A stretch of 64,000 nt of DNA from a virus (taxonomy: Duplodnaviria; Heunggongvirae; Uroviricota; Caudoviricetes), in IMG/VR virus record IMGVR_UViG_3300050821_018098. One strand, 5' to 3'. The notes beneath the pieces are model-generated. The model was not told where the DNA came from. It saw only the letters and a program-made list of their open reading frames with translations, and searched no databases. Position 1 is the stretch's first letter. Every line of letters begins with the position of its first letter. Positions 7,080 to 49,451 of this stretch are shown piece after piece. A program made the translations under genes and the position numbers.

Positions 7080-9389
7080 TTGATGAACATATTACAATAC
7101 ACAACATCTACAAGTGGTACTATTACTTCACAAGATACACAACAAGATCTTCATATAATGCATGATGCCGGAGTCACAGCATCTCTTACAATAACTTTAC
7201 CTGCTACACCATTTAATGGACAAGAAGTAAAGATAACAAGTGTTAATGGAATATCATCATTAACATTAACTACTGGGGTAGGAACTATAGCAAACAATCT
7301 AACATCATTATCTGTTGGTGAATCTATAATATACAAATATCTTTCAAATCAAACAAAATGGTATTTAATTACTTCTATATCAGATATCATAGTCCCAAGA
7401 AGTAATCTACTTGCTGAATATAGATTTGATGAAGGTAGTGGTACTACTTTAACTGATTATTCGGGTAATGGAAATAATGGTACTTATGTAGGTAGTCCTA
7501 CTTTTATAAGTGGTGGTGGGTTTACCGCTTCTGGTTCTAGTTCTCCAGTCCAATATGCAACAGGTCATGCTAATTTTATTTTAACGGCACAGACTATTTA
7601 TCTAGTTTATAGCCCTGATGCTGATTCAGCTTCTACCAACCATCCGATAATGGGTAACAGTGGCGGTAATACTTATTTACAAATAGATCAATCAGACAAT
7701 ACTAATAATTCTCAATTTCCATCAGCTCATTTGTATGGTGGTACTGGATCAGGTTCAAGTGGAAAATGTTATAGTAATGATACTATACCATTATCACCAG
7801 CTATTGTAGCAGTTACTATAGATACAAATAATGCTATTCAAAGTCAAATATTTATAGAAGGTAAAGAAGTATTATCATATAATAGTAGAGCATTGAATAT
7901 TGCTTTAGGTCGAGGTGGTACACCTTGGTTTGGTGGTAATAATATAGGAAATTCTTTTGGTACATTCAACGGTAATATTTATTATGCTGCTTCTTATTCT
8001 ACTTTTCATACAGCTTCACAAGTATTACAAATTACTAATACAATAAGACAGTTATTGAATAACAGAGGAACAGTAAAACAAGATGTATATCAACCTTCTA
8101 CTTTAACTGGTCAATTACTAGCATTAGGTGATAGTATAACATGTATTAATGGAGTAGGTGGAGTAACACCTTATCTTAATAGTATAAGTACTAGAATAAC
8201 TTTCAATAAATATATTAAAGGATGGCCAGGTAATAGTTCCCAATTAGTATATGCAGCACCTGGATTATCATCTTTATATTATGCTCCGGCAGGGTCTTAT
8301 AATATTGTTAGTATTTTTCTTGGTACTAACATAATAAGTAATCAAAGTTTATATGAAGCTTGTTTTGAGGGTATAAAATCCATAGCTAAAGAATTTAAAA
8401 GAAAAGGCTGGCAAGTTTTAGTATTTACAATACCCGATAGAACTAATACCTACTCTTACATGGCTTCCTATAATGGATTATTAAGATCTTCTTTTACAAG
8501 AGATGAAATTGTTGATATAGCTGCTGATCCAAGATTAGGTACTAGTGGGGCTTCTACTAACCTTACTTATTTTCAAGCAGATCAAGTACATCCTACTAAT
8601 ACATCACAACTGTTGATAGCAGATTATTTATCAGCAAAAATCAATAGAATTACTAATTTCTCTATTGATAATAAAACATTATACTCACAAATTAACACAA
8701 GTACAGTCACAAATACTACTACAGAAACCTCAATAGTAGGTACATCTTCTGTAAATGATGTCGAATTCAATAATAGTGTATTCCTGTGTAATACTACTAA
8801 TGGTAATAATGTATTATCTGGACCTTTCTCAACTTCACAATTAGTAGTTGGTCAATTAATAACAGGTGCTGGAATCCCTACAAATACTACTATATCTAGT
8901 ATAACAGATAATAATCACTTGGTAATGAGTAATAATGCTAGTTCTAGTAATTCCAATACTGCTACAACATTTAGTTATATAGCAATGAAGCGACACTTTT
9001 TTGTTCCAGGTCAAATTATTGTTTTTGAACAAAAAGGATTGTTAACCACTGGAGTTTCACAAACTTTAAATAGAAAAGTAAAAATTGGAACTACTGTATT
9101 AGGTTCTACAGGTATAGTTACTTTACCTTCTAGTTTAACCAGTGCATTATATAAAATGAATTTAGTAGTTACCTGTGTTACAATTGGTACTTCTGGGACT
9201 TTTCAGGTACAAGGTGATTTATCAGTATATAATGGAAGCAATGGATACAGTATATACCCAATTTCAAATACTAGTGTAGTTACACTAGATACTACAATAG
9301 ATTCCATAATAGATATTACTGATATATGGGGATCTGCAAGTGCAAGCAATATCGATACATCAACAAATTTAAATATAATCAAATTATAA
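7080..9389 (+). CDS. tail fiber / receptor-binding protein with LamG-like (concanavalin-A-like) lectin domain and SGNH/GDSL hydrolase (esterase) domain
   Basis: N-terminal about 95 aa paralogous to fiber tip domain; LAEYRFDEGSGTTLTDYSGNGNNGTYVGSPTF (LamG_3-like); LLALGDSIT (GDS) and ADQVHPT (DxxH) SGNH motifs. Confidence 0.6.
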   Translation: MMNILQYTTSTSGTITSQDTQQDLHIMHDAGVTASLTITLPATPFNGQEVKITSVNGISSLTLTTGVGTIANNLTSLSVGESIIYKYLSNQTKWYLITSISDIIVPRSNLLAEYRFDEGSGTTLTDYSGNGNNGTYVGSPTFISGGGFTASGSSSPVQYATGHANFILTAQTIYLVYSPDADSASTNHPIMGNSGGNTYLQIDQSDNTNNSQFPSAHLYGGTGSGSSGKCYSNDTIPLSPAIVAVTIDTNNAIQSQIFIEGKEVLSYNSRALNIALGRGGTPWFGGNNIGNSFGTFNGNIYYAASYSTFHTASQVLQITNTIRQLLNNRGTVKQDVYQPSTLTGQLLALGDSITCINGVGGVTPYLNSISTRITFNKYIKGWPGNSSQLVYAAPGLSSLYYAPAGSYNIVSIFLGTNIISNQSLYEACFEGIKSIAKEFKRKGWQVLVFTIPDRTNTYSYMASYNGLLRSSFTRDEIVDIAADPRLGTSGASTNLTYFQADQVHPTNTSQLLIADYLSAKINRITNFSIDNKTLYSQINTSTVTNTTTETSIVGTSSVNDVEFNNSVFLCNTTNGNNVLSGPFSTSQLVVGQLITGAGIPTNTTISSITDNNHLVMSNNASSSNSNTATTFSYIAMKRHFFVPGQIIVFEQKGLLTTGVSQTLNRKVKIGTTVLGSTGIVTLPSSLTSALYKMNLVVTCVTIGTSGTFQVQGDLSVYNGSNGYSIYPISNTSVVTLDTTIDSIIDITDIWGSASASNIDTSTNLNIIKL

Positions 9390-9390
9390 T

Positions 9391-9684
9391 ATGCATGTAT
9401 TACAATACACAACAGTAACAAGCGGAACAGTAACAGCACAAGATACAGGACAGGATGTACAATTGATACATGATGCTGGTGTTACAGCCACTCTTACTAT
9501 AGCTTTTCCAGTAACAACTTTTAATGGTCAAAAATTTGGCGTAATGAGTGCTGGTGGAATTACTACACTTACATTAAGCGTAAGTGCTGGTAGTATCACA
9601 AATGCTATAAGTACATTAGCAGCTGGTGGTTGTAGTACTTATCAATATGTAACAGCACAATCAAAATGGTATAAAATATATTAG
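9391..9684 (+). CDS. small fiber-domain paralog (97 aa), possible fiber adaptor/assembly or receptor-binding accessory protein
   Basis: Whole protein aligns with N-terminus of the 7080 ORF (MHVLQYTTVTSGTVTAQDTGQD...HDAGVTATLTI...) and more weakly with the C-terminus of the 1862-aa fiber. Confidence 0.5.
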   Translation: MHVLQYTTVTSGTVTAQDTGQDVQLIHDAGVTATLTIAFPVTTFNGQKFGVMSAGGITTLTLSVSAGSITNAISTLAAGGCSTYQYVTAQSKWYKIY

Positions 9685-9957: not shown

Positions 9958-10308
9958 ATGAATAAATATGTTCTTAATTTTGAGCAGTTTGTAAAAGAAA
10001 GCCAAAATATTGAAACCAATGAATTCTTTAGTTTTAAGAAAAAAGAATTATCACCTATACAGGAAGAATTAGATATGTTTTTAGATATCATAGGAAGTCT
10101 GGATGTGAAGTTTGACAGTTTATATGATATATCGGAAGCAGAAGCTAATAAAGCAAAAACAATAGCTGAACTTATGCATATAGTAAATAAAGTTCTAAAA
10201 GAATTAAAAGAAGTAAACTTTTTAAGTCCTGATGATATAAATGTAAAAGATAGTCTTGAAATTTTCAAAGAAGAGCTTGCTTCTAAGTCTATAGCAATGA
10301 ATGTTTAA
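9958..10308 (+). CDS. small acidic hypothetical protein with CTS-like N-terminus (MNKYVLNFEQFVKE)
   Basis: 116-aa ORF followed by terminator; N-terminal motif shared with five other ORFs. Confidence 0.4.
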   Translation: MNKYVLNFEQFVKESQNIETNEFFSFKKKELSPIQEELDMFLDIIGSLDVKFDSLYDISEAEANKAKTIAELMHIVNKVLKELKEVNFLSPDDINVKDSLEIFKEELASKSIAMNV

Positions 10309-15851: not shown

Positions 15852-16400
15852 TTAATAAATGTTATCCGTCAAATCTTCTGAATCACCAACCTCTCTGGCT
15901 TCTTTATCACTTTTTGGTTTTTCAAAAATTGTTTTTACAATATCTTTTATTGTTTTTAAAAATAATTTCTCTTTAAGATCTTCTTTGATGTCAATTTTTT
16001 GATCCATTTCTTTTAAAATATTCATATCATTATCATCATAACAATAATAATAAACAGCGATGGTTTTTAAAGCATCTAACTCAGCATCGGGAATATCCAG
16101 TTTATAACAAACTTTCCAAGCGTATATTGCCGTTTCGTTTAAAAAATAAGTAAACCATAGAGTCAAATCACTTTCTGTTTGTTCAATATCTTGAAGTTCA
16201 AAACGAACTTTTCGACCTTTATCATCTTCTTGACCTTTTGACATCCGGCCCCATTTGAACCAATATTTAATTTTAACTTTTAACTCTCTAAAAAAATCCC
16301 GACCAATTACAATATCTTGTTTTTTAATATTTTTATCTTCTCCACTAGTAGCTGGTACTGTCTGTTCTTCAAATTCCTCATATTTTTGTAAATATTTCAT
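15852..16400 (-). CDS. hypothetical protein with CTS-like N-terminal leader (MKYLQKYEEFEEQ); candidate head-packaged internal protein
   Basis: 182-aa ORF; leader shared with 5 other ORFs. Confidence 0.4.
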   Translation of the reverse strand: MKYLQKYEEFEEQTVPATSGEDKNIKKQDIVIGRDFFRELKVKIKYWFKWGRMSKGQEDDKGRKVRFELQDIEQTESDLTLWFTYFLNETAIYAWKVCYKLDIPDAELDALKTIAVYYYCYDDNDMNILKEMDQKIDIKEDLKEKLFLKTIKDIVKTIFEKPKSDKEAREVGDSEDLTDNIY

Positions 16401-19081: not shown

Positions 19082-20641
19082 ATGTTAAAGAAAGAACAAA
19101 TCCGTCAGATAATATCTGAAATAATCGAACAACATCCAGACATCGCAAAAGAAGATAGAACACCACATCATCTGTTAGCTGGCGAAATGATCGCAAAAAA
19201 GGTCCTCCAATATCTATGGCCAGATCAAAAAATTGAAATGCCTGGGGATATGGGTGTTATGGTATTACACAAATTTGATGATATCCCTATGGATGCTGTA
19301 TTCCTTAATAAGGAATTCAATCAATTAAATCTAGAAAATGTTGTTTCTTCCGATAGACCACCATCTCAATTCACAAAACAAGAGCAGAGTAAATTTTACG
19401 TTACTACAAAAAACCAACCTACACTGGTTTTCCTTAGAACCACTAGTCCGGAACTTAAATACAAATTGTTCTGTGTAAGCATGGAAACTAATGAATCAAT
19501 CTTATCAACTTTTAATTTGAATGCTTTACAAGTTGGTATAGATGTTTTAGAAGAGAAATTGTATTTTACAAAAGAGTTTGAAGATTTTGTGAATACTAAA
19601 CAACTCTACGTAACATCTATTTTTAATCCTAACAGTACAATTATTGATTTGATTGTAATGGCAAATACAATTCCTTGCTACTGTGATATTAATGAGGAAC
19701 TTTTGTTACTTGCTCAACCATATTACTATAATAAGGTTACACATTTAACCGTAGATGTTGTTACCTATGAAGAATATCAGAGAGCGAACAGCTATTTCCC
19801 AAATCTTTTCAAGTATTTTTCATACGATAAAAAAGAACAAACGATTTCACCTAAAGAAGATACTCTTCCTCAGGAGACAAGACTTTTAGACATTGCGAGT
19901 GAAGATTTTCAAATGTTCTTGAATTATTGGAAATTGTATAAAAGAAATAGTGTTAGTAAATCTAACCGTGAAAAGTTCGATAAAATATTTACGTTCACTT
20001 TTACGAAGTATTACATTCTGGCTAACCTAGAGTATTATGACTTCAAAAAAGAGCCGGTTGTTGTAGAGATGAAACATCTTGATGATATGTTGATTAAACA
20101 CCCTTCTTTAAATAAGCTTATTAGTGAAATCGGTATTCATGAACAATTAATATTTTGTGAGACCATACGAGATTACATGAGACAATATAACGAATGGGTT
20201 ATAGGTTTCCTTGAAACAAACGATAAACTCTTCAAAGAAGGTAATGTTATTGATTATAATAAAATTACAGAACTTCTTGAAAAAGAAGTTAAGCGTCTAA
20301 ACGAGCCTCTAATAGAGACTTTGGATTTACGTGAGTTCAAATACAGATCTTATGTTGAAGAGCTCCATACACCATTAAAATTACAAGTTGAGGGTAAGAA
20401 AATGCACCATTGCGTAGGAGGTTACTCTAACCAGGTAGAATCTGGACAATCACGTATCTTCCATATTGAAACGGACAATCTTACATTATCTACACTTGAA
20501 ATTGGTGTATCTGGAAAAGATGATAACATGAGTTTCAGTGTAAGACAACATAAAAATGTTAATAATAAAGAACCCGAAGCAGAAAATATCAAAATTGCTA
20601 AGGAACTAGTTGAATTCTTAAGCAAAAAATTCGGTTCTTAA
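19082..20641 (+). CDS. hypothetical protein with PcfJ-like C-terminal motif
   Basis: QVEGKKMHHCVGGYSNQVESGQSRIFHI resembles the PcfJ-like domain (EG..M.HC...Y) signature. Confidence 0.3.
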   Translation: MLKKEQIRQIISEIIEQHPDIAKEDRTPHHLLAGEMIAKKVLQYLWPDQKIEMPGDMGVMVLHKFDDIPMDAVFLNKEFNQLNLENVVSSDRPPSQFTKQEQSKFYVTTKNQPTLVFLRTTSPELKYKLFCVSMETNESILSTFNLNALQVGIDVLEEKLYFTKEFEDFVNTKQLYVTSIFNPNSTIIDLIVMANTIPCYCDINEELLLLAQPYYYNKVTHLTVDVVTYEEYQRANSYFPNLFKYFSYDKKEQTISPKEDTLPQETRLLDIASEDFQMFLNYWKLYKRNSVSKSNREKFDKIFTFTFTKYYILANLEYYDFKKEPVVVEMKHLDDMLIKHPSLNKLISEIGIHEQLIFCETIRDYMRQYNEWVIGFLETNDKLFKEGNVIDYNKITELLEKEVKRLNEPLIETLDLREFKYRSYVEELHTPLKLQVEGKKMHHCVGGYSNQVESGQSRIFHIETDNLTLSTLEIGVSGKDDNMSFSVRQHKNVNNKEPEAENIKIAKELVEFLSKKFGS

Positions 20642-21194: not shown

Positions 21195-22811
21195 TTATGT
21201 AGTTACGTTCATATAAACAATAGCTTCCAGCATATACTTTGGTATAAATTTTATGGATCTTTGCCGAACAGTGCTAAAAGAAGCATCCATAATAAATGTT
21301 TCAGCCCAGTCTGTCTCAGATCTTATACTCCGGCCATAAGTTTGTACTAAGTCTGCTACAGTTTTCCAATTATACCAATCCGGATTAAGTTCTAATCTTC
21401 TTTTAACTTTTTTAGACCCTAAACTAGGATAAGGCATTTTAATTATAATTTGAAACCTTGATAGATCATCTTTTAAGTCAATTCCAGTATTCATTGAGGG
21501 TGAGACTAATATAGTAGGTTTTTTAGACTTTTGATGCATGAATAAAGCCTCATCTCTATTCTGACTTGTATGGAAAATTAATCTATCATCTTTTATCTCG
21601 TCTCTGATCCAATTAGATAATTCATAAGTATTCGTATGAATTATTCCTTTATGATCTTTGTATTTCTTCAAAACTTTCTTTATATAAGGCACCATATCCT
21701 GGAAAGCTATCGTTTTATTATCCTTGGTCATTTTACCAATTGGCATATAATAAATTTGTCTGTTCTCAACAGGGAAAGGTGATGGTATAGAGATCCAATG
21801 TGTTTTTTCAACATCAACTCCCATTAATTTTGAGAACATTTTCTTGTCTAACATAGTACCACTCATTAAAATAACATGCTTGTATTTACTCCATACAAGT
21901 TGTCTTAGATACTCAGCTGACCATACAGGCTCAGCAATAATAGATATTTCGTTATGACTATTGTATTGTTGTTCCAACACCCAGTTATCTGGATCTGCTT
22001 CATACTGTTCTACGAAATATTGAATTTTATCTAGAAAGCCGTTACCATCTCTTATTAATTTCAAATAATCTTTAACAACTGTAGCATCAGTTTTTATCGC
22101 TTCCTGCATTTCAGTTACTACACGTCTTATATCAGGTGAAATGTTCTCAGTAAGCATTTTAATAAATGGTCCTATCTTATCAAGATCAGGAAGGTTTCTT
22201 TCATAAAATGCTAAACGTTCAGCTGGAAGCTTAAATCTTTTTAAATATCGGTAACTTACAGACACACTAATAAAATCAGAAAAAAGTTCTTCGAAATTAT
22301 GAGCCTCATCAATGATAAGTAGATTTGCTTGTCTTTGATCCAGGATAGCCGGCACAAATATAGAGTACATATCAAATAAATGGAAATTAGTTAAGCTTAT
22401 ATCGCCACTTTTCCAGTTTTTCATTGCTGTATCATAAGGACAGTCTTCACATTTAACTTTGTTCATGTCACACATATCCTTACCAAGCTCACAATCACAA
22501 TTGAATTTATCACATCTGTAATTTGCTTTACCCCATAAATTATTAATAAAATCAAACTCTTCGAAATATTGAGTCTGTAACATCTTGGAACAAGTAAGTA
22601 AATCTACCTTAGCTTTTCCATTGATATTTTTTTTATAGTAGTCGCAAATTTGTAAACAAACAATGGATTTGCCACTCCCAGTCGGAAGATCCAGCATTAT
22701 ACATGTTTTACCATCTTCCATAATTGCCTTTTTAGTTTCTTCTAATGCTTCAACCTGAATATCTCTCAGCATTACCAAATCAACAACTTCTTTTAAACTA
22801 CTATACTTCAT
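21195..22811 (-). CDS. SF2 DNA helicase of the DinG/XPD (Rad3) family with Fe-S cluster domain
   Basis: Walker A LDLPTGSGKS, DEAH box IIDEAHN, four-Cys cluster CDKFNCDC...CEDCPYD between motifs I and II, motif VI VQTYGRSIRS. Confidence 0.75.
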   Translation of the reverse strand: MKYSSLKEVVDLVMLRDIQVEALEETKKAIMEDGKTCIMLDLPTGSGKSIVCLQICDYYKKNINGKAKVDLLTCSKMLQTQYFEEFDFINNLWGKANYRCDKFNCDCELGKDMCDMNKVKCEDCPYDTAMKNWKSGDISLTNFHLFDMYSIFVPAILDQRQANLLIIDEAHNFEELFSDFISVSVSYRYLKRFKLPAERLAFYERNLPDLDKIGPFIKMLTENISPDIRRVVTEMQEAIKTDATVVKDYLKLIRDGNGFLDKIQYFVEQYEADPDNWVLEQQYNSHNEISIIAEPVWSAEYLRQLVWSKYKHVILMSGTMLDKKMFSKLMGVDVEKTHWISIPSPFPVENRQIYYMPIGKMTKDNKTIAFQDMVPYIKKVLKKYKDHKGIIHTNTYELSNWIRDEIKDDRLIFHTSQNRDEALFMHQKSKKPTILVSPSMNTGIDLKDDLSRFQIIIKMPYPSLGSKKVKRRLELNPDWYNWKTVADLVQTYGRSIRSETDWAETFIMDASFSTVRQRSIKFIPKYMLEAIVYMNVTT

Positions 22812-22945
22812 ATGAAAATTCTATATAGAAGTTATATAAGGAAGTCATAGTAAGTTTTCATCTTAAATTGAAATATGAGTAATTGTGTAAATTTAATTCA
22901 TAAGCGGAATCTAAATATATAAAGTAACAAAGTAAAAATATTAAA

Positions 22946-23266
22946 ATGACTGTTTTAAAGTATAAAGAGTTCGTCGAACAACAAAACAATTTTCCAAGGA
23001 CTCTGGTGAATCCAAATACGGATTTAGCAGAAGATGATAAACGCCATTACTTTAAAACTATTATAGCTGATCTTAAGAAAACTCTAATAGAACTTTATGA
23101 TATTAAGGATAAAAGAAGTAAAGATATAATAAAGAAATTTTGGAGTATGCCGGAAACGAAAGCTATTATAGAAGATTGTCTAGGTAAGTATCCACAGATT
23201 CTTCCTCATGTATGTTCACAAAGGATATTGAAAGAACTTGAATACGTTATAAATGAAACGGAGTAA
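22946..23266 (+). CDS. hypothetical protein (N-terminus MTVLKYKEFVEQ resembles the shared leader)
   Basis: 106-aa ORF. Confidence 0.3.
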   Translation: MTVLKYKEFVEQQNNFPRTLVNPNTDLAEDDKRHYFKTIIADLKKTLIELYDIKDKRSKDIIKKFWSMPETKAIIEDCLGKYPQILPHVCSQRILKELEYVINETE

Positions 23267-23795
23267 CTTTTTTATCTGTGATTATAATCAGTGGATATAT
23301 CTAAATGATCCAAGGGTTACATCATTATCTGAAGAATTTTTTACAGATATGTTAAAGAATTTTTGTCAAAAATATGATCCTAAATTTCCTCAGTTATATA
23401 AAAAACTCATATCAACAGATCCTTACTGTATTATAAACGCATCCACAATGAGCGAAAAGAATTTTTATTTTGATAATACAATAGATCCGATAAACTGGAA
23501 AGTATTTCCTGACCGAAGAAAATCTTTAACATGTTTTAATTATAAAGAAAACGATCCAGGAAATCTGTATATTGTTATCCCTTATGATGGAGCTAATTTT
23601 GGTATATGCCCAGGAGCTTATTTTTCTGAATGCGTAATTAAAGAATCAAAAGATTTGATTGAGCAAGGATTCACAAGAGCTTATTATAATAACCCTATTG
23701 AATGGCTTAAAGGTCTTAATAAAAGAGAACTATGGACCGATGATAGTTGCTTATTAATATCTCAACAACAATGGGAGAACTTTTTCAAGAAATAA
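23253..23795 (+). CDS. hypothetical protein
   Basis: 180-aa ORF overlapping previous stop. Confidence 0.3.
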   Translation: MKRSNFFICDYNQWIYLNDPRVTSLSEEFFTDMLKNFCQKYDPKFPQLYKKLISTDPYCIINASTMSEKNFYFDNTIDPINWKVFPDRRKSLTCFNYKENDPGNLYIVIPYDGANFGICPGAYFSECVIKESKDLIEQGFTRAYYNNPIEWLKGLNKRELWTDDSCLLISQQQWENFFKK

Positions 23796-23796
23796 T

Positions 23797-24024
23797 TTAT
23801 TTCTTGTGACTAGTATGTTCCTTTATGAATTCAGTGCCTTTTTTATAAATATCAGAGCCCTCTATCATTTTAATACTGCTATTTAAAAAAGGTATTTTAC
23901 TTTTTATGAATATGAAAGATGTTGGATCTAGTTTTATAAGTATTATAATACCAATTATACCTCCTGGTATAACTATACAAAGACCAAAAAGTAATAAAAA
24001 AACAAGTAATTTAAATTTATACAT
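23797..24024 (-). CDS. small membrane protein
   Basis: 75-aa ORF with strongly hydrophobic core (LLVFLLLFGLCIVIPGGIIGIIILI). Confidence 0.3.
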   Translation of the reverse strand: MYKFKLLVFLLLFGLCIVIPGGIIGIIILIKLDPTSFIFIKSKIPFLNSSIKMIEGSDIYKKGTEFIKEHTSHKK

Positions 24025-26224
24025 TTGTAAATATATCCTCAGCTTTTATCAAATCTCTTTTAATCCACGACTTTAGTTTACTATACCTATGATTATCCAT
24101 AATAGCTTTATCGACTTTACAACCTTTACTAATAAGATATTTAGTTGTTTTTAAATTTTGTTTTTCAATAGCTTCTCTTAATAATTCATTATTTCTAAAT
24201 GTTATATCAGCATTTTTTTCTTCTATTAACCATTTTAAAATTTTAAATATATTTTCTATTTTTACTTTGTCAGATTCATAATATGATGAAATACAATTTA
24301 ATACATATTCACCATAATGACTATCCACTTTCTTTTCTTCTGATGTTCTGTTTTTAAGCCAATAAGAATCACCGTTATTAGGATCCATTTTTAATGTGCT
24401 TAATAAATATTTAAACATTTCATAATAACCTTCTCGACAACATCTTACTAATTCATGATTATTAGAAAATTGTCTTATAATAGACACTTTTTTCTCTTCA
24501 GCAAAAAATTTAACAAGTTCTAAGTTATTGGAATTTACAGCTTCTATAAATAAAGATTCGTTAAAATTTCGCTCGCTTAAAGAGTCACTATGCCTCATAC
24601 CATCTTTTGACCAATCAGCTTTACTATATTCATCAAAAAACTCTTTGTTCATTTTATTTTTAATATAAAAATCTAACCTATATGCTCTATATTTATTAGG
24701 TTTTTCTTCTGTTAAAAGTAACTTTTTAACGTCATCAATTTTATTATTTTTTACCATCCAAGAACCTAGTTGAGACCACTTATCATAACCTATTACACCA
24801 GTTTCCTTCCATACTTTGTAACAATTCGTCATATCACCTAACTTATAATAAGCATCAAATTTATTTACAGGATCTTTAATAGTATCTTCAATTAGCTCAG
24901 AAAGGAATATTTTATAACTTTTGTCTATAGTATAATAATAATTTCTATAAACATTTATAATTTGTAGTATATAATTTTCGTTTTTTACATATTTCTTAAC
25001 AATATCAACAAATTGATCGAATAGAGATTTATTTTGTAGAAAATAAGTAATCACATTAGGTAGATATTTTGCTACATCTATACGGTCCAGATTATTTAAA
25101 AATAATTCACTTTGTTTATCTCTAAAAATTTTACCTGGTGCCTCACACAAAAGATCCATTTGTTGATCAATAGATAATTTTGAAATATACAATAAGAAAA
25201 TATTATTATTTTTAGAAGAAAGTAAATAATTTACAAGTTCTAGTTTGTTGGCAAACTTTAAAGCTTTTGATTTATTAATAGCTTGTTCAGAATCTAATAC
25301 CTTTATAACACTTGTAGGTATACCAGTTTGTTCTAAATATTTTGTTTTGTTTATACCTACTAAAGGTGTATCATCCTTTTTATGTGCAAAATTCATTTTA
25401 CCGTCTTGTTCTACAGTGAAACCTACAAGAAATAATTTGTCTGTAATATCTTTTTCAAACCACCAAGAAAAATATTGTGCTGCTAAAATATTTTTTGTAT
25501 ACTGTTGAAAATAACTAATACTTCTACTGATACACCAAGCATCAGAACCAAATTTTTTAGAAGCATCAAATGTCAGTATACGACAAACAATAACACCCTT
25601 ATTTATGTCTGTATAAACAATATCTACATCTGTATCACTTTTTAAGTTAGTCAGTAATGTCTCATAATTAGCACTAAAACTTCTTTTAGAAACAAAAGAA
25701 ATCAAAGAACTTAAAAGTGATTGAAAATCTTTAAAAACACTCAATTTCTTTATCAGATCTGATTTATCAGGAAGATCATAAAATAATATAGCAGCCTCTT
25801 TAAATTTATTTTTATTTTCTTGTGTTTGATTATCAACAATATTTTTTAAGTTAGATGGTAGTTCATTAAAAATTTTATTAGCTTTATTGTCACGTTCAAC
25901 TTGATTCATAGCATCTTCCAATTTTTCAGGACCATCTAAAATGTAATCAACCGGAGATTTAGGTAGTTTTTGAATAAGATTATTCCTTTTAAAAAACTCT
26001 AACCTATCAACTAACTTTTTAGCATCATCAAACATAAATTTAAATTCATAATAAAAATATATAAGCATGTAAACATAACCTAAACAATTTTTACTACTAC
26101 AAAATTCTGTATATTGTTTCAGTATTCCGTCACCACTAGGATGTTTTTCAGCCAAATATTTTTTAGCTTTTTGTACATCCTCATTAATAGGTCGAAAATC
26201 ATCAAATTTTTTAAAAAACTTCAT
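24017..26224 (-). CDS. large hypothetical protein with CTS-like leader (MKFFKKFDDFRPINE) and ankyrin-like repeats near C-terminus; candidate injected effector
   Basis: 735-aa ORF; C-terminal NNHELVRCCREGYYEMFKYLLS and RNNELLREAIEKQNLKTTKYLISKGCKVD resemble ankyrin repeat consensus. Confidence 0.4.
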   Translation of the reverse strand: MKFFKKFDDFRPINEDVQKAKKYLAEKHPSGDGILKQYTEFCSSKNCLGYVYMLIYFYYEFKFMFDDAKKLVDRLEFFKRNNLIQKLPKSPVDYILDGPEKLEDAMNQVERDNKANKIFNELPSNLKNIVDNQTQENKNKFKEAAILFYDLPDKSDLIKKLSVFKDFQSLLSSLISFVSKRSFSANYETLLTNLKSDTDVDIVYTDINKGVIVCRILTFDASKKFGSDAWCISRSISYFQQYTKNILAAQYFSWWFEKDITDKLFLVGFTVEQDGKMNFAHKKDDTPLVGINKTKYLEQTGIPTSVIKVLDSEQAINKSKALKFANKLELVNYLLSSKNNNIFLLYISKLSIDQQMDLLCEAPGKIFRDKQSELFLNNLDRIDVAKYLPNVITYFLQNKSLFDQFVDIVKKYVKNENYILQIINVYRNYYYTIDKSYKIFLSELIEDTIKDPVNKFDAYYKLGDMTNCYKVWKETGVIGYDKWSQLGSWMVKNNKIDDVKKLLLTEEKPNKYRAYRLDFYIKNKMNKEFFDEYSKADWSKDGMRHSDSLSERNFNESLFIEAVNSNNLELVKFFAEEKKVSIIRQFSNNHELVRCCREGYYEMFKYLLSTLKMDPNNGDSYWLKNRTSEEKKVDSHYGEYVLNCISSYYESDKVKIENIFKILKWLIEEKNADITFRNNELLREAIEKQNLKTTKYLISKGCKVDKAIMDNHRYSKLKSWIKRDLIKAEDIFTNV

Positions 26225-26305
26225 ATATTATATATCAAATATAAGAATTTAATATGAAAGTTCATTTTTATGTTTTAAATTTGTATCCACGTAAAAAATA
26301 TTAAA

Positions 26306-26557
26306 ATGATCTGGCATTATGTACTTTGGACAATATTAGGATATATTATTGGTAGAGCAATGTTTAAATATGTAATCATTTTTTGTAAAGAAATTTTAGA
26401 AATAAAAAAAGGAATGACAATAATATTAACTATCATATCACATATACCTATAGTGAATATGTTATTTTCTCTTTTGTTTTTTATGTTTGTAATTATTTTA
26501 GCTTCTATAGGTTACAGTATCTACTATTTTTTAAAATACATAAAATATATAGACTAA
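26306..26557 (+). CDS. small membrane protein
   Basis: 83-aa ORF, two hydrophobic segments. Confidence 0.3.
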   Translation: MIWHYVLWTILGYIIGRAMFKYVIIFCKEILEIKKGMTIILTIISHIPIVNMLFSLLFFMFVIILASIGYSIYYFLKYIKYID

Positions 26558-26760
26558 TGGAAGAGCAAAGACAAAAATGTATCGTTGAATATCATATAGC
26601 TACTTATTCAGGTGAGGAAATTGTTTACTGTGATAGTAATGATGATAATGATTTTATTATATCAAAAGCGAAGAATCAATTAAAAAGAAAGGCTGGTGTG
26701 TTTCCATTTGGTTACCAATCCTTTAAAATTATTGAACGAGAAGACTATGATGGTGAATAA
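26557..26760 (+). CDS. hypothetical protein
   Basis: 67-aa ORF, start overlapping previous stop. Confidence 0.25.
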   Translation: MEEQRQKCIVEYHIATYSGEEIVYCDSNDDNDFIISKAKNQLKRKAGVFPFGYQSFKIIEREDYDGE

Positions 26761-27029
26761 TGGCTAGAAATGAAAATAAATTATCTTTGATTTATGATAA
26801 AAGACAAAATGATTTTGTTACAAAATTTCCAAGAAGCTGTGATGGTGCTCTAATTATGCATACTTTATTATCTGATATTCTTCGATATAGTTGGGAAAAA
26901 GAATATAAACAACAGAAGCCAGCTTATAATGTATTTAATCTTAAAGAAGAGTTAGAAAGTAGAGGGTATGATTTAACAACTTTAAAGTTTTCTATCGAAC
27001 TGAAAAAATTAGATAGCGAAAGTAAATAG
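26760..27029 (+). CDS. hypothetical protein
   Basis: 89-aa ORF, start overlapping previous stop. Confidence 0.25.
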   Translation: MARNENKLSLIYDKRQNDFVTKFPRSCDGALIMHTLLSDILRYSWEKEYKQQKPAYNVFNLKEELESRGYDLTTLKFSIELKKLDSESK

Positions 27030-27416
27030 TTTATTTTCTTTTAAAAATGAAAAATTATCACCGGCACCCCAACTAAACTTACCAGCTGCTTTTTCAAACC
27101 CATTATATTTCAACATTCTTATTTGTTCATCATCCGAATATTTTACAAAGCAACAATCCTGTTTAGGTTTGAACATATTATTAAATTCAATACCATCAAA
27201 ACGAAGTTCATTATCTGTCTTTCTAGTATCCTGTAAAATATAAGCCTCTTTTATTTGACTTTCAGTGATGTAATTAACAATTTCTACCTGATAACCTTTA
27301 TCTTCAGCAATCCTCATAAGTTTTAACATCCTAAGATTATTCATATCTTCCGAAAGTGAATTATCCCAGGATGTAACTATTAAATATGCATTTTTTGCTT
27401 TTTTCGGTAAATTCAT
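27009..27416 (-). CDS. hypothetical protein
   Basis: 135-aa ORF. Confidence 0.3.
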   Translation of the reverse strand: MNLPKKAKNAYLIVTSWDNSLSEDMNNLRMLKLMRIAEDKGYQVEIVNYITESQIKEAYILQDTRKTDNELRFDGIEFNNMFKPKQDCCFVKYSDDEQIRMLKYNGFEKAAGKFSWGAGDNFSFLKENKLFTFAI

Positions 27417-27437
27417 AACCTATATATTCAAGCCGAA

Positions 27438-28658
27438 TCACAAATAGAGTTCTTGTTTAAATTGTGAATGCCATAAATTCTCAACATGATTTGTAAATAT
27501 TGGCTGAATCATAGCTAGATTACTTTTCTGAAAATAAACAGAATCGTGAACAGTGAAAAGAACTGTCTTAGGATCCTCTTTCTTAATGTCTTTAACAATA
27601 TTATCAAACATTAAAGTTGATTCTATCTTCTGTAACTCCCAGGATAAGGCTCTATAATCGTTAATTTTGTATTTATATTCACTTATCCATCTGTATATTT
27701 TAGGATATATTTTTTTGAATATATTATTGTGCCAACAATGTATAGATTTACCAAAGAAAACTTTAAATATAAGTTTTTTTGCATCGTTCCTAGTAATATC
27801 TGCCTCATTCATAAAATCTTCATAAAACTCACCCTTCCGGACAGCGTTAACAAATCTATCTAATTCATCAGAATCAGAGAAGCCAGACTCTTTAAGAATA
27901 ATTGCTAAGAATAATGGTTGTGCATTTGGTATATCAAGTTCTTCTATCTGTTCACCATGTATAGTCAAGCAATTACTTCTTATATTTTTCTTTAATACAG
28001 TGAAATTTGTATGCATCCTACCAAATTTATCAAATGACCAGAAAAATGATTCGTCTGCAATAGATTCAATACTATATTGGTTTTTTCTATATTGACTTAA
28101 TCTTAAACATCCTATATCATAATAGTTATTTAATAATCTTGCAGCTTTTTCAAAATCAAGTTTTATAAAGTATAAATCTTCTATAAGAGATTTACGAACA
28201 GGATCCAATTCTTTTTGATATCCAGAGGGTTCATCCATATGTGATAACTTATAATCACGCCATTTCTTCATATAAACATTATCAGTACATTTCACCCGGA
28301 TACAGTGTCCCTTACTCACATCACTAGTTAAAGCATAAGTCTTTGCTTTATAACCTACACGGTAATTTGATATCATATCAATAAAACCAACTTGTTCTAA
28401 ATATGAAATATATGCCTTATAGTATCCACCATATTTTTCTTTCACAATATCAGCACAAAGATTTAATGTATCATGACCATTGAAGTGATAATTGATTACA
28501 AAAGTGTGTATCAGATCAAAAAGATAATCTGTTTTAAGATTTTTATTTCCTGACTCAATACTTCTATGTTCTCTCAGGAAGCCTAAGTTTTCAGGGATAA
28601 ATCTTAACACATGTGTCTTATCCATTATTTTTTGTACGAAAAATTCAGATTTATTCAT
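27438..28658 (-). CDS. minimal family-A (PolA/T7-like) polymerase-domain protein lacking exonuclease domains
   Basis: Motif A-like ELDIPNAQPLFLAII (D...Q...LA), motif B/O-helix-like RNDAKKLIFKVFFGKS (RxxAKxxxFxxxFGxS vs RRxAKxxNFGxxYGxS), motif C-like LFTVHDSVYFQ (VHDE-like), in A-B-C order with A-B spacing like Klenow. Confidence 0.5.
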   Translation of the reverse strand: MNKSEFFVQKIMDKTHVLRFIPENLGFLREHRSIESGNKNLKTDYLFDLIHTFVINYHFNGHDTLNLCADIVKEKYGGYYKAYISYLEQVGFIDMISNYRVGYKAKTYALTSDVSKGHCIRVKCTDNVYMKKWRDYKLSHMDEPSGYQKELDPVRKSLIEDLYFIKLDFEKAARLLNNYYDIGCLRLSQYRKNQYSIESIADESFFWSFDKFGRMHTNFTVLKKNIRSNCLTIHGEQIEELDIPNAQPLFLAIILKESGFSDSDELDRFVNAVRKGEFYEDFMNEADITRNDAKKLIFKVFFGKSIHCWHNNIFKKIYPKIYRWISEYKYKINDYRALSWELQKIESTLMFDNIVKDIKKEDPKTVLFTVHDSVYFQKSNLAMIQPIFTNHVENLWHSQFKQELYL

Positions 28659-29401: not shown

Positions 29402-30574
29402 ATGTATCGTAATAACACAGATAAAAACTATCTTGATCTCATAGACTTGATTTATAATCAAGGTGCTACAAAAAGCGATAGAACTGGTACTGGTACCATA
29501 TCCTATTTTGGTCACCAAATGCGATTTAACCTTCTAGAAGGTTTCCCACTAGTAACAGTTAAGAAAACATTTCATAAAGCAATCACACATGAATTATTGT
29601 GGTTTTTAGATGCTGTTGATCCCTATTACAAAGATTATGGTAATACCAATATTAAATATCTTGTTGATAATAAAGTATCAATATGGAATGAGTGGGCTCT
29701 TAAACCATATCTGGAAGCTACAGGTAAAGGACATATTAAACCAAATGCTCCTGAATGGGAGTCTGTCTGGAATGATGAAATGAAAATATTTGTAGAAAAA
29801 GTAAGAACTGATGATGTATTTGCGAAACAGTGGGGTGAACTAGGTCCTGTATATGGTAAACAGTGGACAGATTGGGGTGGTTCAATGCAAATGCTTCCAA
29901 TGCCTGGAACACAAGATGAATATTTTGGAGGATCGTTTGGTGGACCAACACAAGTAAATTTTGCACCATTATCTCTACAACATATTAAAGGAATCAATCA
30001 AATAGAAAATGTAATACATAAACTACGTAATCGTCCCGATGATAGACGTATAATTGTTTCAGCATGGAATGTTTCTGAAATAGATCAAATGGCCCTTCCG
30101 CCATGCCATGCCTTCTTTCAATTTTATTCTTTCGAAATGACTAATGAAGACAGAGTTAAAAGCTTTACACAGTGGGCTCTTAAACATGGTTATGATATAA
30201 CTGGAATGTCCACAGAGAACGCCTTGATACATTATAATTTTCCAAAAAGAAAACTCAATCTACAACTATATCAAAGATCCGTAGATGTCTGCATTGGTTT
30301 GCCATTTAATATAGCTAGTTATGCGTTAATTTTGGAAATGATAGCTCAAGTTACGGATCATTTAGCTTTTGAATTTATACATACTTCAGGAGATGCACAT
30401 ATTTACCTTAATCATATGGATAGTATTGCTGATTTTAAAAATAATGAATCATACCCATTACCAACATTATATCTGGATAGAAATATAAAAGAGCTCTCTG
30501 ATTTCAGAATTGAACATATTAATATAAGTAATTATCAAAGCCATCCTTATATACCACTCAAAGTAGCTGTATAA
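29402..30574 (+). CDS. thyA: thymidylate synthase ThyA (with about 45-aa insertion)
   Basis: DRTGTGT, FGHQMRFNL, DRRIIVSAWN, active-site PCHAFFQFY, QLYQRSVDVCIGLPFNIASYAL (Asn retained, so dUMP-specific). Confidence 0.9.
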   Translation: MYRNNTDKNYLDLIDLIYNQGATKSDRTGTGTISYFGHQMRFNLLEGFPLVTVKKTFHKAITHELLWFLDAVDPYYKDYGNTNIKYLVDNKVSIWNEWALKPYLEATGKGHIKPNAPEWESVWNDEMKIFVEKVRTDDVFAKQWGELGPVYGKQWTDWGGSMQMLPMPGTQDEYFGGSFGGPTQVNFAPLSLQHIKGINQIENVIHKLRNRPDDRRIIVSAWNVSEIDQMALPPCHAFFQFYSFEMTNEDRVKSFTQWALKHGYDITGMSTENALIHYNFPKRKLNLQLYQRSVDVCIGLPFNIASYALILEMIAQVTDHLAFEFIHTSGDAHIYLNHMDSIADFKNNESYPLPTLYLDRNIKELSDFRIEHINISNYQSHPYIPLKVAV

Positions 30575-34042: not shown

Positions 34043-34744
34043 TTAAATATTTGATATAACCATCGCTGGCTCTTGTTCACAATTCCATTTAAACCAATAA
34101 AAATCAACATCCTGTATATGATATGGAGATTCCTCATATATTATATTTATTTTTGGCTTCTCATCTTGAGTAATAACTTCATCTACAACTATTTTACTTC
34201 CTGGTTTTACAAAAATATTTTGTCCCCAACTATTTTTTACATTGATTCCAGCATTAACTATCCATCTACCAGTATGTGGTTTGAAATAGTCATGTAAAAT
34301 GTTTTTTAAAATACCAATTACTTTAATCTTTACAGATGCATTACCATATACCTCATCGAAACTTGATGATTTGAAGAATGGTGTTTGAAATCCACCCCAG
34401 TTTTGAAATATACCTAAAAATATTTGTTCACCTATAATGAATTTCAAATATATGTCAAGAAGATTCAAATTGTTATCGAACATTTTAAGTATAAAAACTT
34501 GTTTCATATCAACATTTGAACTGTCAACATAACTACCACCATGAAGATTTCTTAAACCGGTTGAAATTTGTACTAAAGTATCTATTTGTTGTCTTTTAAG
34601 GCCAGCATATCTATCAAAAGGATCAAAAGATAATTGTGGATCTCTTGGTTGCATTGCACCTGTACCAGTACTAAGACTTTGAAACATGAATTCGCTAGTT
34701 TCAGTTAGTTTTTCAAAATCATCATATTTCTTAATAAACTTCAT
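34043..34744 (-). CDS. hypothetical protein with CTS-like leader (MKFIKKYDDFEKLTE); candidate head-packaged internal protein
   Basis: 233-aa ORF; leader motif shared with 5 other ORFs. Confidence 0.4.
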   Translation of the reverse strand: MKFIKKYDDFEKLTETSEFMFQSLSTGTGAMQPRDPQLSFDPFDRYAGLKRQQIDTLVQISTGLRNLHGGSYVDSSNVDMKQVFILKMFDNNLNLLDIYLKFIIGEQIFLGIFQNWGGFQTPFFKSSSFDEVYGNASVKIKVIGILKNILHDYFKPHTGRWIVNAGINVKNSWGQNIFVKPGSKIVVDEVITQDEKPKINIIYEESPYHIQDVDFYWFKWNCEQEPAMVISNI

Positions 34745-36113: not shown

Positions 36114-36148
36114 TAAAAAAGGTCAGCTGAATCAGCTGACCTTTTTTA
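36114..36148. terminator. bidirectional rho-independent terminator
   Basis: aaaaaa-ggtcagctg-aat-cagctgacc-tttttt. Confidence 0.85.
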
Positions 36149-36529
36149 TTTCTTTTTAGGTTTACCTATATAAGCTTTAATTGGTACATTAAGATTGACC
36201 GCAGCCTCTAATCTATGAGCACCATCAAGAAATAAATATTCTTTACCAGTATCTACCAAAACAACTGGTGGAAATCCAGAACCATTTTTATATTCTTTCA
36301 TATAACGTTTAACGTCCCTTTTTGAATGAGCATACAGATTTTTTATTTTCGGATCGTTTGGTTGAATCCAAATAGGTTTTAGATTCCAAGTATATTGATT
36401 CAAACCATTTATACCACGCCAAGCATCACGTGCTGTTCCAGCATAAATATTATATTGATCAATATGATCAGATATAACTTTATATGGTTCTGGTACTTCA
36501 AAGGTTTCAAAAGTTTTAACGTATTTCAT
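36146..36529 (-). CDS. ParB-like nuclease (ParB N-terminal/sulfiredoxin fold) domain protein with CTS-like leader (MKYVKTFETFEVPE)
   Basis: KEYLFLDGAHRLEAA (DGxHR motif of the ParB/Srx fold); 127 aa. Confidence 0.4.
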   Translation of the reverse strand: MKYVKTFETFEVPEPYKVISDHIDQYNIYAGTARDAWRGINGLNQYTWNLKPIWIQPNDPKIKNLYAHSKRDVKRYMKEYKNGSGFPPVVLVDTGKEYLFLDGAHRLEAAVNLNVPIKAYIGKPKKK

Positions 36530-45944: not shown

Positions 45945-48900
45945 CTATGATCCACAAGCCTCACAATTTTCTGGATTATCAAGTGAACAGGATAGTTGAC
46001 TACTAGATTCATCTTCAGTAATTGTTGTAAGTATATCTACTTTCACTGTAGCTTTTTGCTCTACAGTAAATTGAACAGCATCAATACCGGTTTGTGTTCT
46101 TAGATAATACATACCTGTTTTTAAAGCTTTTTGTGGTGTAGTACCATATTTAACATCTAACTCAGATTTAGTAACTCCACCACCCCATCCATAGAAATGC
46201 ATACCATTAAGTTTAGCAAAATTAGGATCTTTCATATAGATATTCATTGATTGTGTTTGATCCATATAAGCTCCACGATCAGCATATTGATCAATAACAT
46301 CTTTTTGACTAATTTCCCAAACTGTTTTGAAAATATCTTTGATATCCTGAGGTATAATATCTATATTTTGTATAGAACCTTTACCACGAATAATCTCATT
46401 CTTCATTGCTTCAGTCCAAAGGCCTCTTTCACAAAGAGTTTTAACTAAATATTTATTTAATACAACAAATTCACCTGAAAGAAGTCTTCTTGTATAAATG
46501 TTAGAAGTTTGAGCTTCGCAACTAGCTTCATTACCAAATATACTTGCTGTTGAAGCTGTAGGCATAGCACAAGTAATCAAACTGTTTCTTATACCATACT
46601 GTTTAATTTTATCTTTTAATGCATCCCAATCGTATCTACCTGGTTCTGGAACTATATTCCACATATCGAATTGAAGAGTACCTTGTGATGCTGGAGAGCC
46701 TTCAAATGTTTCATAAGGACCATCTTTTTTAGCCAAATCACAAGATGCTTTCATAGAAGAATAGTAAATAGTTTCAAATATTTGTTTATTTAAAATTTTT
46801 GCTTCTTCTGAGGCAAAAGGAATTTTTAATTTGAAATATACATCAGCTAAACCTTGTACTCCAAGCCCGATAGGTCTGTGTTTCAAATTAGATTTTTTAG
46901 CTTCTTCTACAGGATAATAGTTAATATCAATAACTTTATTCAAATTAACTGTCGCAACATAAGCAACTTCTTCCAATTTTTTAAAATTAAATGTACCATC
47001 ATCTTTAACAAATCTTGGTAAACATAATGATGCAAGATTACATACAGCTACCTCATCAGGAGCAACATATTCAACGATTTCAAGGCATAAATTCCCATTT
47101 TTTATAACACCAATATTTTTTTGATTAGATTTTACGTTAATCGAATCTTTATAAGCAATATATGGAGCACCAGTTTCAATTTGAGATTCCAATATTTTTT
47201 TCCATAGATCCCGAGCTTTAACTTGTTTTTTGAACTTACCTTCCAGTTCATATTTTTCATAAAGAGTAACAAAATCATCCCCATAAACATCCATTAATCC
47301 AGGAGATTCATTAGGACACATTAAACTCCATACAAGATCTTTCTCAACACGCTGCATAAATAAATCACACATCCATATAGCAGTAAACAAATCTCTTGTA
47401 CGCATCTCTTCTTTACCATTATTCTTTCTTAAATCAAGAAAGTCAAATATATCAGCGTGCCATGGTTCTAAGTACATGGCAAAACTTCCTTTCCTTTTCC
47501 CACCCCCGTTATGAGCTAAACCTATATGTGTAACATACTCATGATTTGTGTCTATTTCAAAATCATATACATTCCCAGCATACTTCGTTTTATTAATATC
47601 AGTAATTCTTGTATAAAGATAATTATCATGCACCATGAAGTTAACCCATTCACCAACTTCTATATTAAACAAATCAGCAATATCTTGAACTTTAGGTATT
47701 CTTATACAGTAACTAACTTTAGCATGTTTACGACCAGATGTATACTCGATATTTCTTCTGTCTCTGATATAACCGGAAGTAAATATACCAAACCGCATTA
47801 ACATATATCTTGTAGATTCAATTACATTTCTTGAAGTCATTTCCAGAGTCAATTCTTTAGAAATACATCCATCAGAGAGCATTAAGCCTTTAAACAAACC
47901 AAGACTTTTATCTTTTGGTAAATGTAAAAGATTTTTATGTATTATTTTTTCAGCATTATGATCATAAAAATATTCCCTATTAAATTTAAATCTTTCGTTT
48001 ATACAAAAATAAATTACTGTCATATTAGGATGATATGTATCATCTAATATAGAATATTTTATTATGTTATCATTAAGATACTGTTCAACAAAAGCTAAAG
48101 CTTCTATATCAGTATTTTCTAAATATATTTTACACTCTGTACTTTCTTTATTAATATACCCATCACCAACAATAATACCATACATTATAGCATCACTAAC
48201 AGAAATACTCGAAATATCTTTTTCATAATTCACTATTGGTGTTACTAGAAAATCATCAACCTTCAAATCTTTTGTTTCAATCCATTCAGGTTTTATTATT
48301 CCTTTTTCCAACCTGTTTTTAATAACAGAATAATTTACGCCTTTCTCTTGTTGTAAAGTAAACATTGGATGTTGTGTTGTAACAATTACTGGATCGATAG
48401 AATGTTTTGTTTCAATAGCAAGAAAATCTTTATGTTGAGCTGGATAACGTCTTGTTCTAAGGACTTCTTGAAATGTTCCATCACTAGTTAAAACTTTATC
48501 ACCTATTACTATTTTACCTATTTGTTTTGGTCCTTCAATAGTATAAATAATAGTTTCATAAGCGAAACACTGATCTACATAGCGAGCTGTGTCATTGTAT
48601 ACACGAAGCATTGGTACAATACCGTTAGAAGTACCATTGGTACCTTTAATATAGGATCCTGTTGCTCTAATATTAGAAATAGAAATTCCTATACCACCAG
48701 CAGCTTGTGAAATTTTAGCACATTGTTTTAATGTGTCATATATTCCATCTATTGAATCGTTTTTCATTTGTAATAAAAAACATGAGCTCATTTGCGGCTT
48801 TTGCGTTCCAGCATTGAATAAACTAGGTGTGGCATGTGTGAAATAAAACTGTGAAATTAAGTTATATGTTTTGATTGCACTCTTAATATCTTTACCATGA

Positions 48901-49451
48901 ATACCAACAGCAGTTCTCATAAAAAGATATTGGGGTCTTTCTATAATTTTCCCGTCAATTTTTAATAGATAAGATTTTTCTAAAGTTTTAAATCCCATAT
49001 AATCCAAAAGAAAATCTCTTGTTTGAATTATAGCTGCATCTATTTCATCTTTGTTTTCTTGAACTATATCATTGAATTCTTTTGAAACAAGTGGTGCATG
49101 TTCACCATTTTCTTTGTTTACATAATCGTACATTTTCTGAGATGTTTCAGAAAAACTTTTGAATGTTTTTTTGTAGAGATTTGTAATAGCTAATCTCGCA
49201 GCTAGATAAGAATAGTCAGGATGTTTTACTGTTAAAACAGCAGCCGTCTCAACGGCTAAATTGTCTAATTGCTCCGATGTAACACCATCATAAAGACCTT
49301 CTACTACTTTTTGTGCAACCTCACTTGGGTTCACCCATAATCTATCTAAGCTAAAGGTTTCACGCTCAATCCTTCCGTAAATTTTATCAAGATTTACGGT
49401 CTCTTTTTTTCCATTACTTTTAATAACTTGCATATTCGTTTTGTAATCCAT
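45945..49451 (-). CDS. nrdA: ribonucleotide reductase class Ia large subunit (R1/NrdA, eukaryote/T4-like type) interrupted by a 354-aa intein
   Basis: ATP-cone N-terminus; [20 protein letters not shown] | intein | [23 protein letters not shown] matches R1 core; C-terminal catalytic NCxE region and C-terminal CxxC tail (CEACGS). Confidence 0.9.
47508..48569 (-). mobile_element. intein (Hint domain + double-LAGLIDADG homing endonuclease) inserted in nrdA between VDQ and GGGKRKG
   Basis: Block [14 protein letters not shown]..., block [10 protein letters not shown] (TxxH), LAGLIDADG motifs [11 protein letters not shown] and [13 protein letters not shown], block [22 protein letters not shown]; +1 residue is Gly (verified at DNA level: gct cat aac ggg ggt ggg aaa). 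Confidence 0.75.

Follow-up and report, generated by a model that had tools for sequence, protein, structure and literature searches.

A leader-bearing ankyrin-repeat protein from a phage with T4-type head genes: a candidate for trimmed and ejected capsid cargo

The 64,000-nucleotide stretch of caudoviral DNA analyzed here (Caudoviricetes; IMG/VR record IMGVR_UViG_3300050821_018098; hereafter the window) encodes on its minus strand a 735-residue protein, the target of this study. We propose, tentatively and with a little less than even confidence, that it is cargo of the type of T4 Alt, which would be packaged into the head, trimmed and ejected. It would consist of a 15-residue propeptide in the style of the T4 capsid-targeting sequence (CTS), a conserved domain designated WCI, and an alpha-solenoid with ankyrin repeats. 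The leader recurs on other proteins of the phage, the N-terminal domain belongs to a large family, and T4-type head and protease genes are present in the same genome. The parts of the target are as follows.

24017..26224, minus strand: target open reading frame (ORF), 735 aa plus stop codon; the start is the first start codon past the upstream stop
26180..26224, minus strand: leader, aa 1-15, MKFFKKFDDFRPINE; residues 4, 7 and 10 are aromatic, and the last three, I13-N14-E15, are a candidate (L/I)xE site for processing
25325..26179, minus strand: WCI domain, aa 16-300, with a helical part (aa 13-196) and then an alpha/beta core (aa 197-290)
25526..25537, minus strand: invariant W230-C231-I232(-S233) motif, from family alignments
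24590..25324, minus strand: all-helical hairpin repeats (alpha-solenoid), aa 301-545, of low to medium model confidence and with no family match
24050..24589, minus strand: ankyrin repeats, about four plus a cap, aa 546-725, with repeats near aa 553-586, 587-620, 634-675 and 676-709, from Pfam and the AlphaFold2 model

The methionine of the target is also the point at which the alignments of its homologues start. N-terminal sequences of the type MK[FY]xK[KT][FY][DE]xF are common to five ORFs, at 9958, 15852, 24017, 34043 and 36146, whose first ~10 residues are alike and which have nothing in common past residue ~12. The four ORFs other than the target are listed with the distance from their start to an upstream 9-mer, [AG]ATATATA[ACT], discussed below.

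9958..10308, plus strand: 116 aa, MNKYVLNFEQFVKE followed by S, fitting the exact T4 register [FYW]xxF[IVL]xE; 9-mer 20 nt upstream
15852..16400, minus strand: 182 aa, beginning MKYLQKYEEFEE...; 9-mer 22 nt upstream
34043..34744, minus strand: 233 aa, MKFIKKYDDFEKLTE followed by T; near-copy of the 9-mer 4 nt before the start
36146..36529, minus strand: 127 aa, MKYVKTFETFEVPE followed by P; last of a three-gene run headed by 36837 (9-mer 21 nt upstream)

Of the 12 copies of the core [FY][DEQ][DEQT]F in the window proteome (19,263 aa), five stand at residue 7-8 of an N-terminus, against 0.29 expected (~17-fold, Poisson 1.3e-5, for a pattern defined post hoc). The leader copies use differing synonymous codons and exchange F and Y, whereas the amino-acid pattern is kept. 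Because the codons differ between copies, the leader is conserved at the protein level, and its sequences identify it as a real, recurrent N-terminal tag; the preliminary description of this DNA, which had called the target leader-bearing, was right on this point. Residues 1-10 of the target have a pLDDT of 38 in both the full-length and the domain-only models and therefore lie outside the fold. Alternatively, AT-rich codon usage or selection on the translation-initiation region could have produced the leader, which would then have no role as a protein sequence. The genome has ~29% GC, the codons of Lys, Phe, Tyr, Asp and Asn are AT-rich, and AAA/AAG is a common second codon. However, the persistence of the amino-acid pattern over varying codons, the excess over the composition-based expectation and the appearance of the same pattern in relatives with other sequences make this explanation very improbable.

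A pattern derived from T4 and fixed a priori, [FYW]xxF[IVL]xE, was scanned over the 174 ORFs that this phage and four related loci encode. It occurs 15 times, and seven of the occurrences fall within the first 16 residues, where 0.53 would be expected (P=1.5e-6). The exact T4 register is found in ORF 9958 and in neighbors of homologues of the target in the loci L001, L009 and L010; in L001, the gene adjoining the WCI homologue starts with MILKYIEFIKE. In L009 (8001-10548), a WCI-only homologue of 273 aa is followed by two ADP-ribosyltransferase (ART)-like genes, matching Tox-ART-HYD1 (faintly) and ART-PolyVal. The ART-like protein directly downstream of the homologue begins MKTFKQFIYE, near the T4 CTS MKTYQEFIAE, and the ART-PolyVal protein, two genes further on, carries NFKQFVNE. 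The L009 region may be an island of injected effectors.

By its sequence, the I-N-E at the end of the target leader is a site of the T4 (L/I)xE type. In the family, the site [LI]-x-E lies 8-20 residues from the methionine. The motif was found in 111/189 family members by a search pattern that itself allowed only hydrophobic residues at P3 and only E or D at P1; within this set, P3 is I or L in 98/111, P1 is E in 110/111 and P1' is N in 91/111.

The genomic prerequisites of T4-type capsid targeting, namely a gp20 portal, a gp23 capsid protein, a gp21-like protease and a scaffold core, are present. They were located through the last ORF of the window, which led to locus L007. L007 shares 1323 nt with the end of the window at 0 mismatches and is therefore taken as the same genome. 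It encodes a T4-type portal (Pfam Portal_T4, 5e-57), a gp23-type major capsid protein (7e-31) and the following fusion protein.

L007 3677-5803, about 3.7-5.8 kb beyond the window end: protease-scaffold fusion, 708 aa, phrog_207 3e-29

The first ~270 residues of the 708-aa protein are a head maturation protease, with weak matches to Pfam S77 (0.008) and S80 (1.7e-4). Its C-terminal part is made of 14-residue repeats, xYxxY[IL]xExLxxx[IL], most of them with [LI]xE, and the 708 residues contain 24 [LI]xE sites, where the proteome rate is 1.5% (P=3e-4). This part can be likened to T4 gp22, the scaffold that gp21 degrades at (L/I)xE; in T4, protease and scaffold are separate genes. I-L-E is found at residues 9-11 of the protease and 19-21 of the capsid protein. 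All characterized relatives cut after Glu, the T4, phiKZ and SPN3US proteases among them (PMC5694885). A T4-like specificity is plausibly kept in this phage. Proteins of the window itself include a UvsX-like recombinase, a DnaB/gp41-like helicase, a gp44-like clamp loader and a weak gp15-like match, and by its gene content the phage is a distant T4-like relative. A nucleotide search of positions 22000-28000 against 50,697 phage records returned nothing, leaving the region without a close deposited relative. A gene for a protein with a Tn7 TnsA-like N-terminal endonuclease domain (63135-63635, plus strand) precedes the portal gene by about 0.8 kb, or one gene. A tRNA-Gln(ttg) gene is located downstream of the capsid gene, at L007 8418-8493 on the minus strand; no tRNAs were found inside the window.

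The 73.6 kb examined contain 27 copies of the 9-mer mentioned above. Of these, 18 precede a start in the same orientation by no more than 80 nt, most of them with a spacing of 17-24 nt. The 9-mer precedes the portal, protease-scaffold, capsid and gp15-like genes and many small unknown genes, and it precedes the leader-bearing transcription units 9958, 15852, 22946 and 36837-36146 at the same ~20-nt spacing as in the head genes. The replication genes are without it. Judged by this distribution, the 9-mer is probably the late promoter of this phage, a variant of that of T4, TATAAATA.

Window 9929, 11921, 16423, 22914, 37209, 50699, 52395, 53753, 55409, 59742 and 60635, and L007 1752, 3648 and 5852: copies of the 9-mer
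26228..26236, minus strand: the copy at the target, GATATATAA, ending 3 nt before the ATG instead of the usual 17-24 nt

The target ORF is present as the preliminary description gave it, and both ankyrin-like segments quoted there were located, NNHELVRCCREGYYEMFKYLLS at aa 588-609 and RNNELLREAIEKQNLKTTKYLISKGCKVD at aa 677-705. One database record (P0001) holds an identical protein, on JGI/ENA contigs of up to 167 kb. Pfam Ank_2 matches two stretches of the target (E=1.3e-9; 38.9 bits against a gathering cutoff of 27.3), the better at aa 551-617. Ank_3 (27.4 bits, cutoff 22.3) and Ank (22.9 bits, cutoff 21.1) are also above their curated cutoffs, and Ank_4 falls slightly short (22.3 bits, cutoff 22.7). 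In the full-length AlphaFold2 model, computed from a 40-sequence alignment and with a mean pLDDT of 75, aa ~547-724 form stacked helix pairs, about four repeats and a cap. The pLDDT of this block is mostly 54-90 and drops below 50 in the loop 618-626. Profile matches and solenoid model together confirm that the ankyrin repeats are real, and the earlier claim stands, since an Ank match and a solenoid were both found. As a whole, aa 300-735 are modeled as an alpha-solenoid of helical hairpins. In the PDB, its Foldseek matches are repeat proteins only (designed PPR, TPR, AnkB and DARPin fusions), all weak, with E values of 1.6e-3 or worse.

The preliminary description centered on the ankyrin third and overlooked the N-terminal WCI domain, which is the defining module of the protein. 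Alignments indicate that the best-conserved part of the target is its N-terminal 300 residues rather than the ankyrin third. An exhaustive phmmer search over 1.8 billion cluster representatives gave 516 matches, nearly all to aa ~1-300 rather than to the ankyrin part. The C-terminal regions of these family members are highly variable, which suggests swapping of target adaptors, and total length ranges from about 140 to about 1,500 aa. One subgroup of the family has the domain at the C-terminus, and two proteins contain it twice. In these tandem proteins, P0006 (1554 aa) and P0007 (744 aa), the second copy keeps a leader-like stretch and an [LI]NE site followed by N, an arrangement that suggests gene fusion or polyprotein-style processing. 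A profile search of a word-indexed database yielded 39 close homologues, 17 of which carry strong ankyrin Pfam domains C-terminal to WCI. The ankyrin fusion is thus recurrent and ordinary within this family, and the earlier remark that ankyrin repeats are rare in phages does not extend to the target's own relatives.

Scans against Pfam, PHROGs, NCBIfam and PADLOC gave no match for the N-terminal domain, which belongs to no described family. No PDB match was obtained, and no known enzyme fold was recognized. The full-length target, used as query in the word-indexed protein search, retrieved only itself; the IMG/VR scan showed no relative, and neither the window nor L007 contains a second WCI-domain paralogue. 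With the target or the family member P0014 as query, tblastn found only LR745206 and LR756502, two unannotated huge phages, and thus no cultured phage with a virion proteome that carries a clear homologue. In a viral structure library, the best Foldseek match of the domain is a protein of an uncultured marine phage (E 2e-13); a protein annotated as structural in Pseudomonas phage PA5oct also appears (E 0.016). On the sequences available, WCI is a large, metagenomic, uncharacterized phage family.

Modeled alone, the WCI domain reaches a pLDDT of 89 and a pTM of 0.79, and in this model the WCI motif stands immediately N-terminal to a helix, which is followed by three strands. Within about 65 positions of the alpha/beta core, 14 invariant residues are clustered, among them Cys, His, Asp, Gln, Thr and two Ser. 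Besides the WCI motif, alignment A5 has S222, G226, S227, Y242, Q250, Y251, F252, G268, T270, H281 and D285 as invariant positions of the core. From this conservation, C231, H281 and D285 make up a probable, putative Cys-His-Asp site.

We treat the PcfJ-like proteins (PF14284) as the nearest known fold for the WCI domain, weakly, and not as its family. Both have a similar order of strand, helix, x-C-[VI], helix and three strands around a conserved Cys, whereas the WCI domain has an additional helical N-terminal part of ~180 residues. About 12 PcfJ-like BFVD models are among its Foldseek matches, with E values of 3e-3 to 0.7 and TM-scores of 0.13-0.24 normalized to the query. In hhalign against a five-sequence PcfJ alignment, Cys231 falls on the Cys of HCVG in the expected register, a non-significant result (E 0.03, probability 1.6%), and hhalign against the neighboring PcfJ-like protein alone was negative. 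Pfam PcfJ does not match the target at E<=10, nor any of 50 family members at E<=0.01. We therefore rejected plain membership of the PcfJ family. The conserved H-C-V motif of PcfJ is W-C-I in the WCI family, with only the Cys in common, and no conserved counterpart of His281 or Asp285 was seen in the PcfJ sequences inspected. In a search for more PcfJ relatives, the word index gave no matches and tblastn found one Vibrio/Shewanella phage group only. Literature searches on PcfJ function gave no useful result, and PcfJ is without a known function. The neighboring protein is encoded 3.4 kb from the target.

19082-20641, plus strand: PcfJ-like protein, 519 aa, with a C-terminal PcfJ-like domain (Pfam 6.8e-9) and an HHCVGGY motif

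The record of phage YerA41 labels a PcfJ-like protein as structural, particle LC-MS/MS being linked at the level of the record only (PMC7354516), and in phage DSL-LC04 a PcfJ-like gene lies between terminase and portal. By analogy, these records may give the packaged reading indirect support.

Functionally, the closest known system to the target appears by analogy to be that of the CTS-tagged ejection proteins of T4, Alt and the internal proteins. The T4 CTS is the first 10 residues, MKTYQEFIAE, in which targeting depends on positions 4 and 7 and processing on positions 8 and 10 (PMC9026906, PMC8442874). The aromatic residues F7 and F10 of the target count toward a likeness to the CTS because they are three apart, as are Y4 and F7 of T4. 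In T4, gp21 removes propeptides of 10-20 residues (PMC5694885). Like the target, Alt, IPI, IPII and IPIII have a short N-terminal propeptide, aromatic residues three apart and an (L/I)xE end (PMC9026906, PMC5694885). In both phages, the tag is common to otherwise unrelated proteins. Alt is also similar to the target in size; this 682-aa enzyme is packaged, undergoes trimming at ITE-6 and LTE-619, and is then ejected (PMC5694885). Unlike Alt, the target has no ADP-ribosyltransferase domain; the Pfam, NCBIfam and PHROGs scans gave no ART family for it, and ART-like genes were seen only beside the L009 homologue. It shows no similarity to the internal proteins. The ejection proteins of phiKZ and SPN3US and the Dar proteins of P1 resemble it in being large and loaded into the prohead via terminal propeptides, which in phiKZ and SPN3US are trimmed after Glu by a gp21-related protease (PMC5694885, PMC9024508). 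They differ in their cleavage motif, (S/A/G)xE instead of (L/I)xE, and in propeptides that often exceed 100 residues, and no relation of sequence or fold to the target was seen.

By this analogy we infer targeting, cleavage, ejection, target binding and catalysis. The leader would dock the target on the prohead scaffold core, and the gp21-like prohead protease would cut after Glu15 (I-N-E, followed by D). The mature protein of ~83 kDa would stay in the head and be ejected with the DNA, as are T4 Alt and the internal proteins. In the host, the solenoid and ankyrin part would bind a host protein, on which the WCI domain would act, possibly as a thiol enzyme. The preliminary description had arrived at an injected effector. 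The recurrent leader, the ankyrin repeats and the T4-type machinery genes speak for that view, which we share only tentatively, the steps from packaging to effector activity being drawn by analogy. A bolder extension, which we consider unlikely, is that WCI is a new thiol-enzyme family that a conserved T4-type code for targeting and cleavage loads into the capsids of T4-like and huge aquatic phages and that is injected, with swappable C-terminal adaptors, ankyrin repeats among them, choosing the host target.

Several observations weigh against packaging and cleavage and would suit a protein that is never packaged. Such a protein would act in the cytoplasm as a host-takeover or anti-defense factor, through ankyrin/solenoid binding and the WCI domain, and its N-terminal motif would be the start of the domain (a helix cap) or serve another purpose. 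The target lies among genes of replication and nucleotide metabolism (a Rad3-like helicase, ThyA and the PcfJ-like gene), not head genes, and the genes near its homologues are accessory ones (methyltransferases, GIY-YIG, ARTs), not those of the head. Location says little against packaging, since T4 too encodes Alt and the internal proteins outside its head cluster. The leader fits a relaxed version of the T4 pattern only. It misses the exact register [YF]xxF[IV]xE, since F7-D-D-F10-R-P-I13-N-E15 has two extra residues before the site, and it counts 15 residues against 10 in T4. The residue past the conserved Glu, mostly N and otherwise D, S, G or H, is in line with helix N-cap preferences; helix 1 of the AlphaFold2 model starts at I13, and the [LI]xE-N motif is kept in the internal second domain copies. 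Because it is N-cap-like and kept internally, this motif need not be a cleavage site and may be structural, a helix cap. The atypical spacing of the 9-mer, 3 nt from the ATG, points to a leaderless mRNA or a different promoter, so that late transcription of the target is not established. A cytoplasmic factor, however, does not account for the same first ~10 residues on otherwise unrelated proteins of this phage, for the concentration of T4-register motifs at N-termini within the phage group, or for the position of residues 1-10 outside the fold. We regard it as the main alternative, somewhat less likely than the proposed cargo role.

A further objection concerns the enzymatic part of the proposal, for which no known enzyme fold was matched, catalysis being guessed from conservation alone. 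The target could instead be packaged as a non-enzyme, a protein inside the head or an accessory of the scaffold, with a solenoid that binds DNA or capsid components and with Cys, His and Asp residues that are structural or metal-binding. It would share the targeting evidence with Alt-like cargo; moreover, more than half of the target is repeat scaffold, and the internal proteins of T4 are mostly non-enzymatic (PMC3012670). Conversely, the density of invariant residues in the core is more typical of an active site, and the variable C-terminal modules suggest adaptor swapping, which renders this role improbable.

Phage-encoded ankyrin repeats are also found in ANKp of Ankyphages and in proteins of phage WO, which are secreted or act on eukaryotic cells and are known to modulate them (bioRxiv 10.1101/608950; PMC9203015). 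The target would, on this precedent, be secreted by the bacterial host and act on a eukaryote. It differs from these proteins, however, in its CTS-like leader and in the fusion of its ankyrin part to a phage-specific domain, and it has no signal peptide or membrane segment: on the Kyte-Doolittle scale, 12-residue means within the first ~50 residues reach at most 0.13, and 19-residue values peak at 1.09 over the whole protein. The phage looks lytic and T4-like, and no eukaryote-association module was seen. Secretion of this kind is hardly credible here.

Other features of the window concern the vicinity of the target and more distant genes. A small ORF overlaps the target stop with its start by 8 nt, and because of this overlap the two may be translationally coupled.

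23797..24024, minus strand: hydrophobic ORF, 75 aa, with no family match

Downstream of a 1862-aa fiber-like protein, the neighboring plus-strand ORFs 7083-9389 and 9391-9684 have nearly the same first ~45 residues (MNILQYTTSTSGTITSQDT... and MHVLQYTTVTSGTVTAQDT...) and may be a duplicated or swappable tail-fiber cassette. The thymidylate-synthase-like ORF at 29402-30574 (plus strand) has 390 aa, well above the usual ThyA length, with an apparent insertion in its middle. The 1168-aa ORF at 45945-49451 (minus strand), which we tentatively take to be a ribonucleotide reductase, is unusually long for one and might contain an intein or a fusion.

Capsid-delivered proteins are the phage's first strike at host defenses, and to our knowledge very few of them are known beyond T4, P1 and the phiKZ group. 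If the leader and its site mark cargo, a large unannotated family (hundreds of 50%-identity clusters, many of them ankyrin-fused) would gain a testable role, and the T4 rule known from E. coli phages would extend to very distant uncultured relatives. Candidate anti-defense effectors could then be selected from metagenomes by their N-termini alone, and the code of leader plus [LI]xE would let the injected proteomes of uncultured T4-like phages be read from sequence. Should the leader turn out to have no targeting role, the target would still offer a conserved domain that is new, has a probable Cys-His-Asp site and is recurrently fused to ankyrin repeats.

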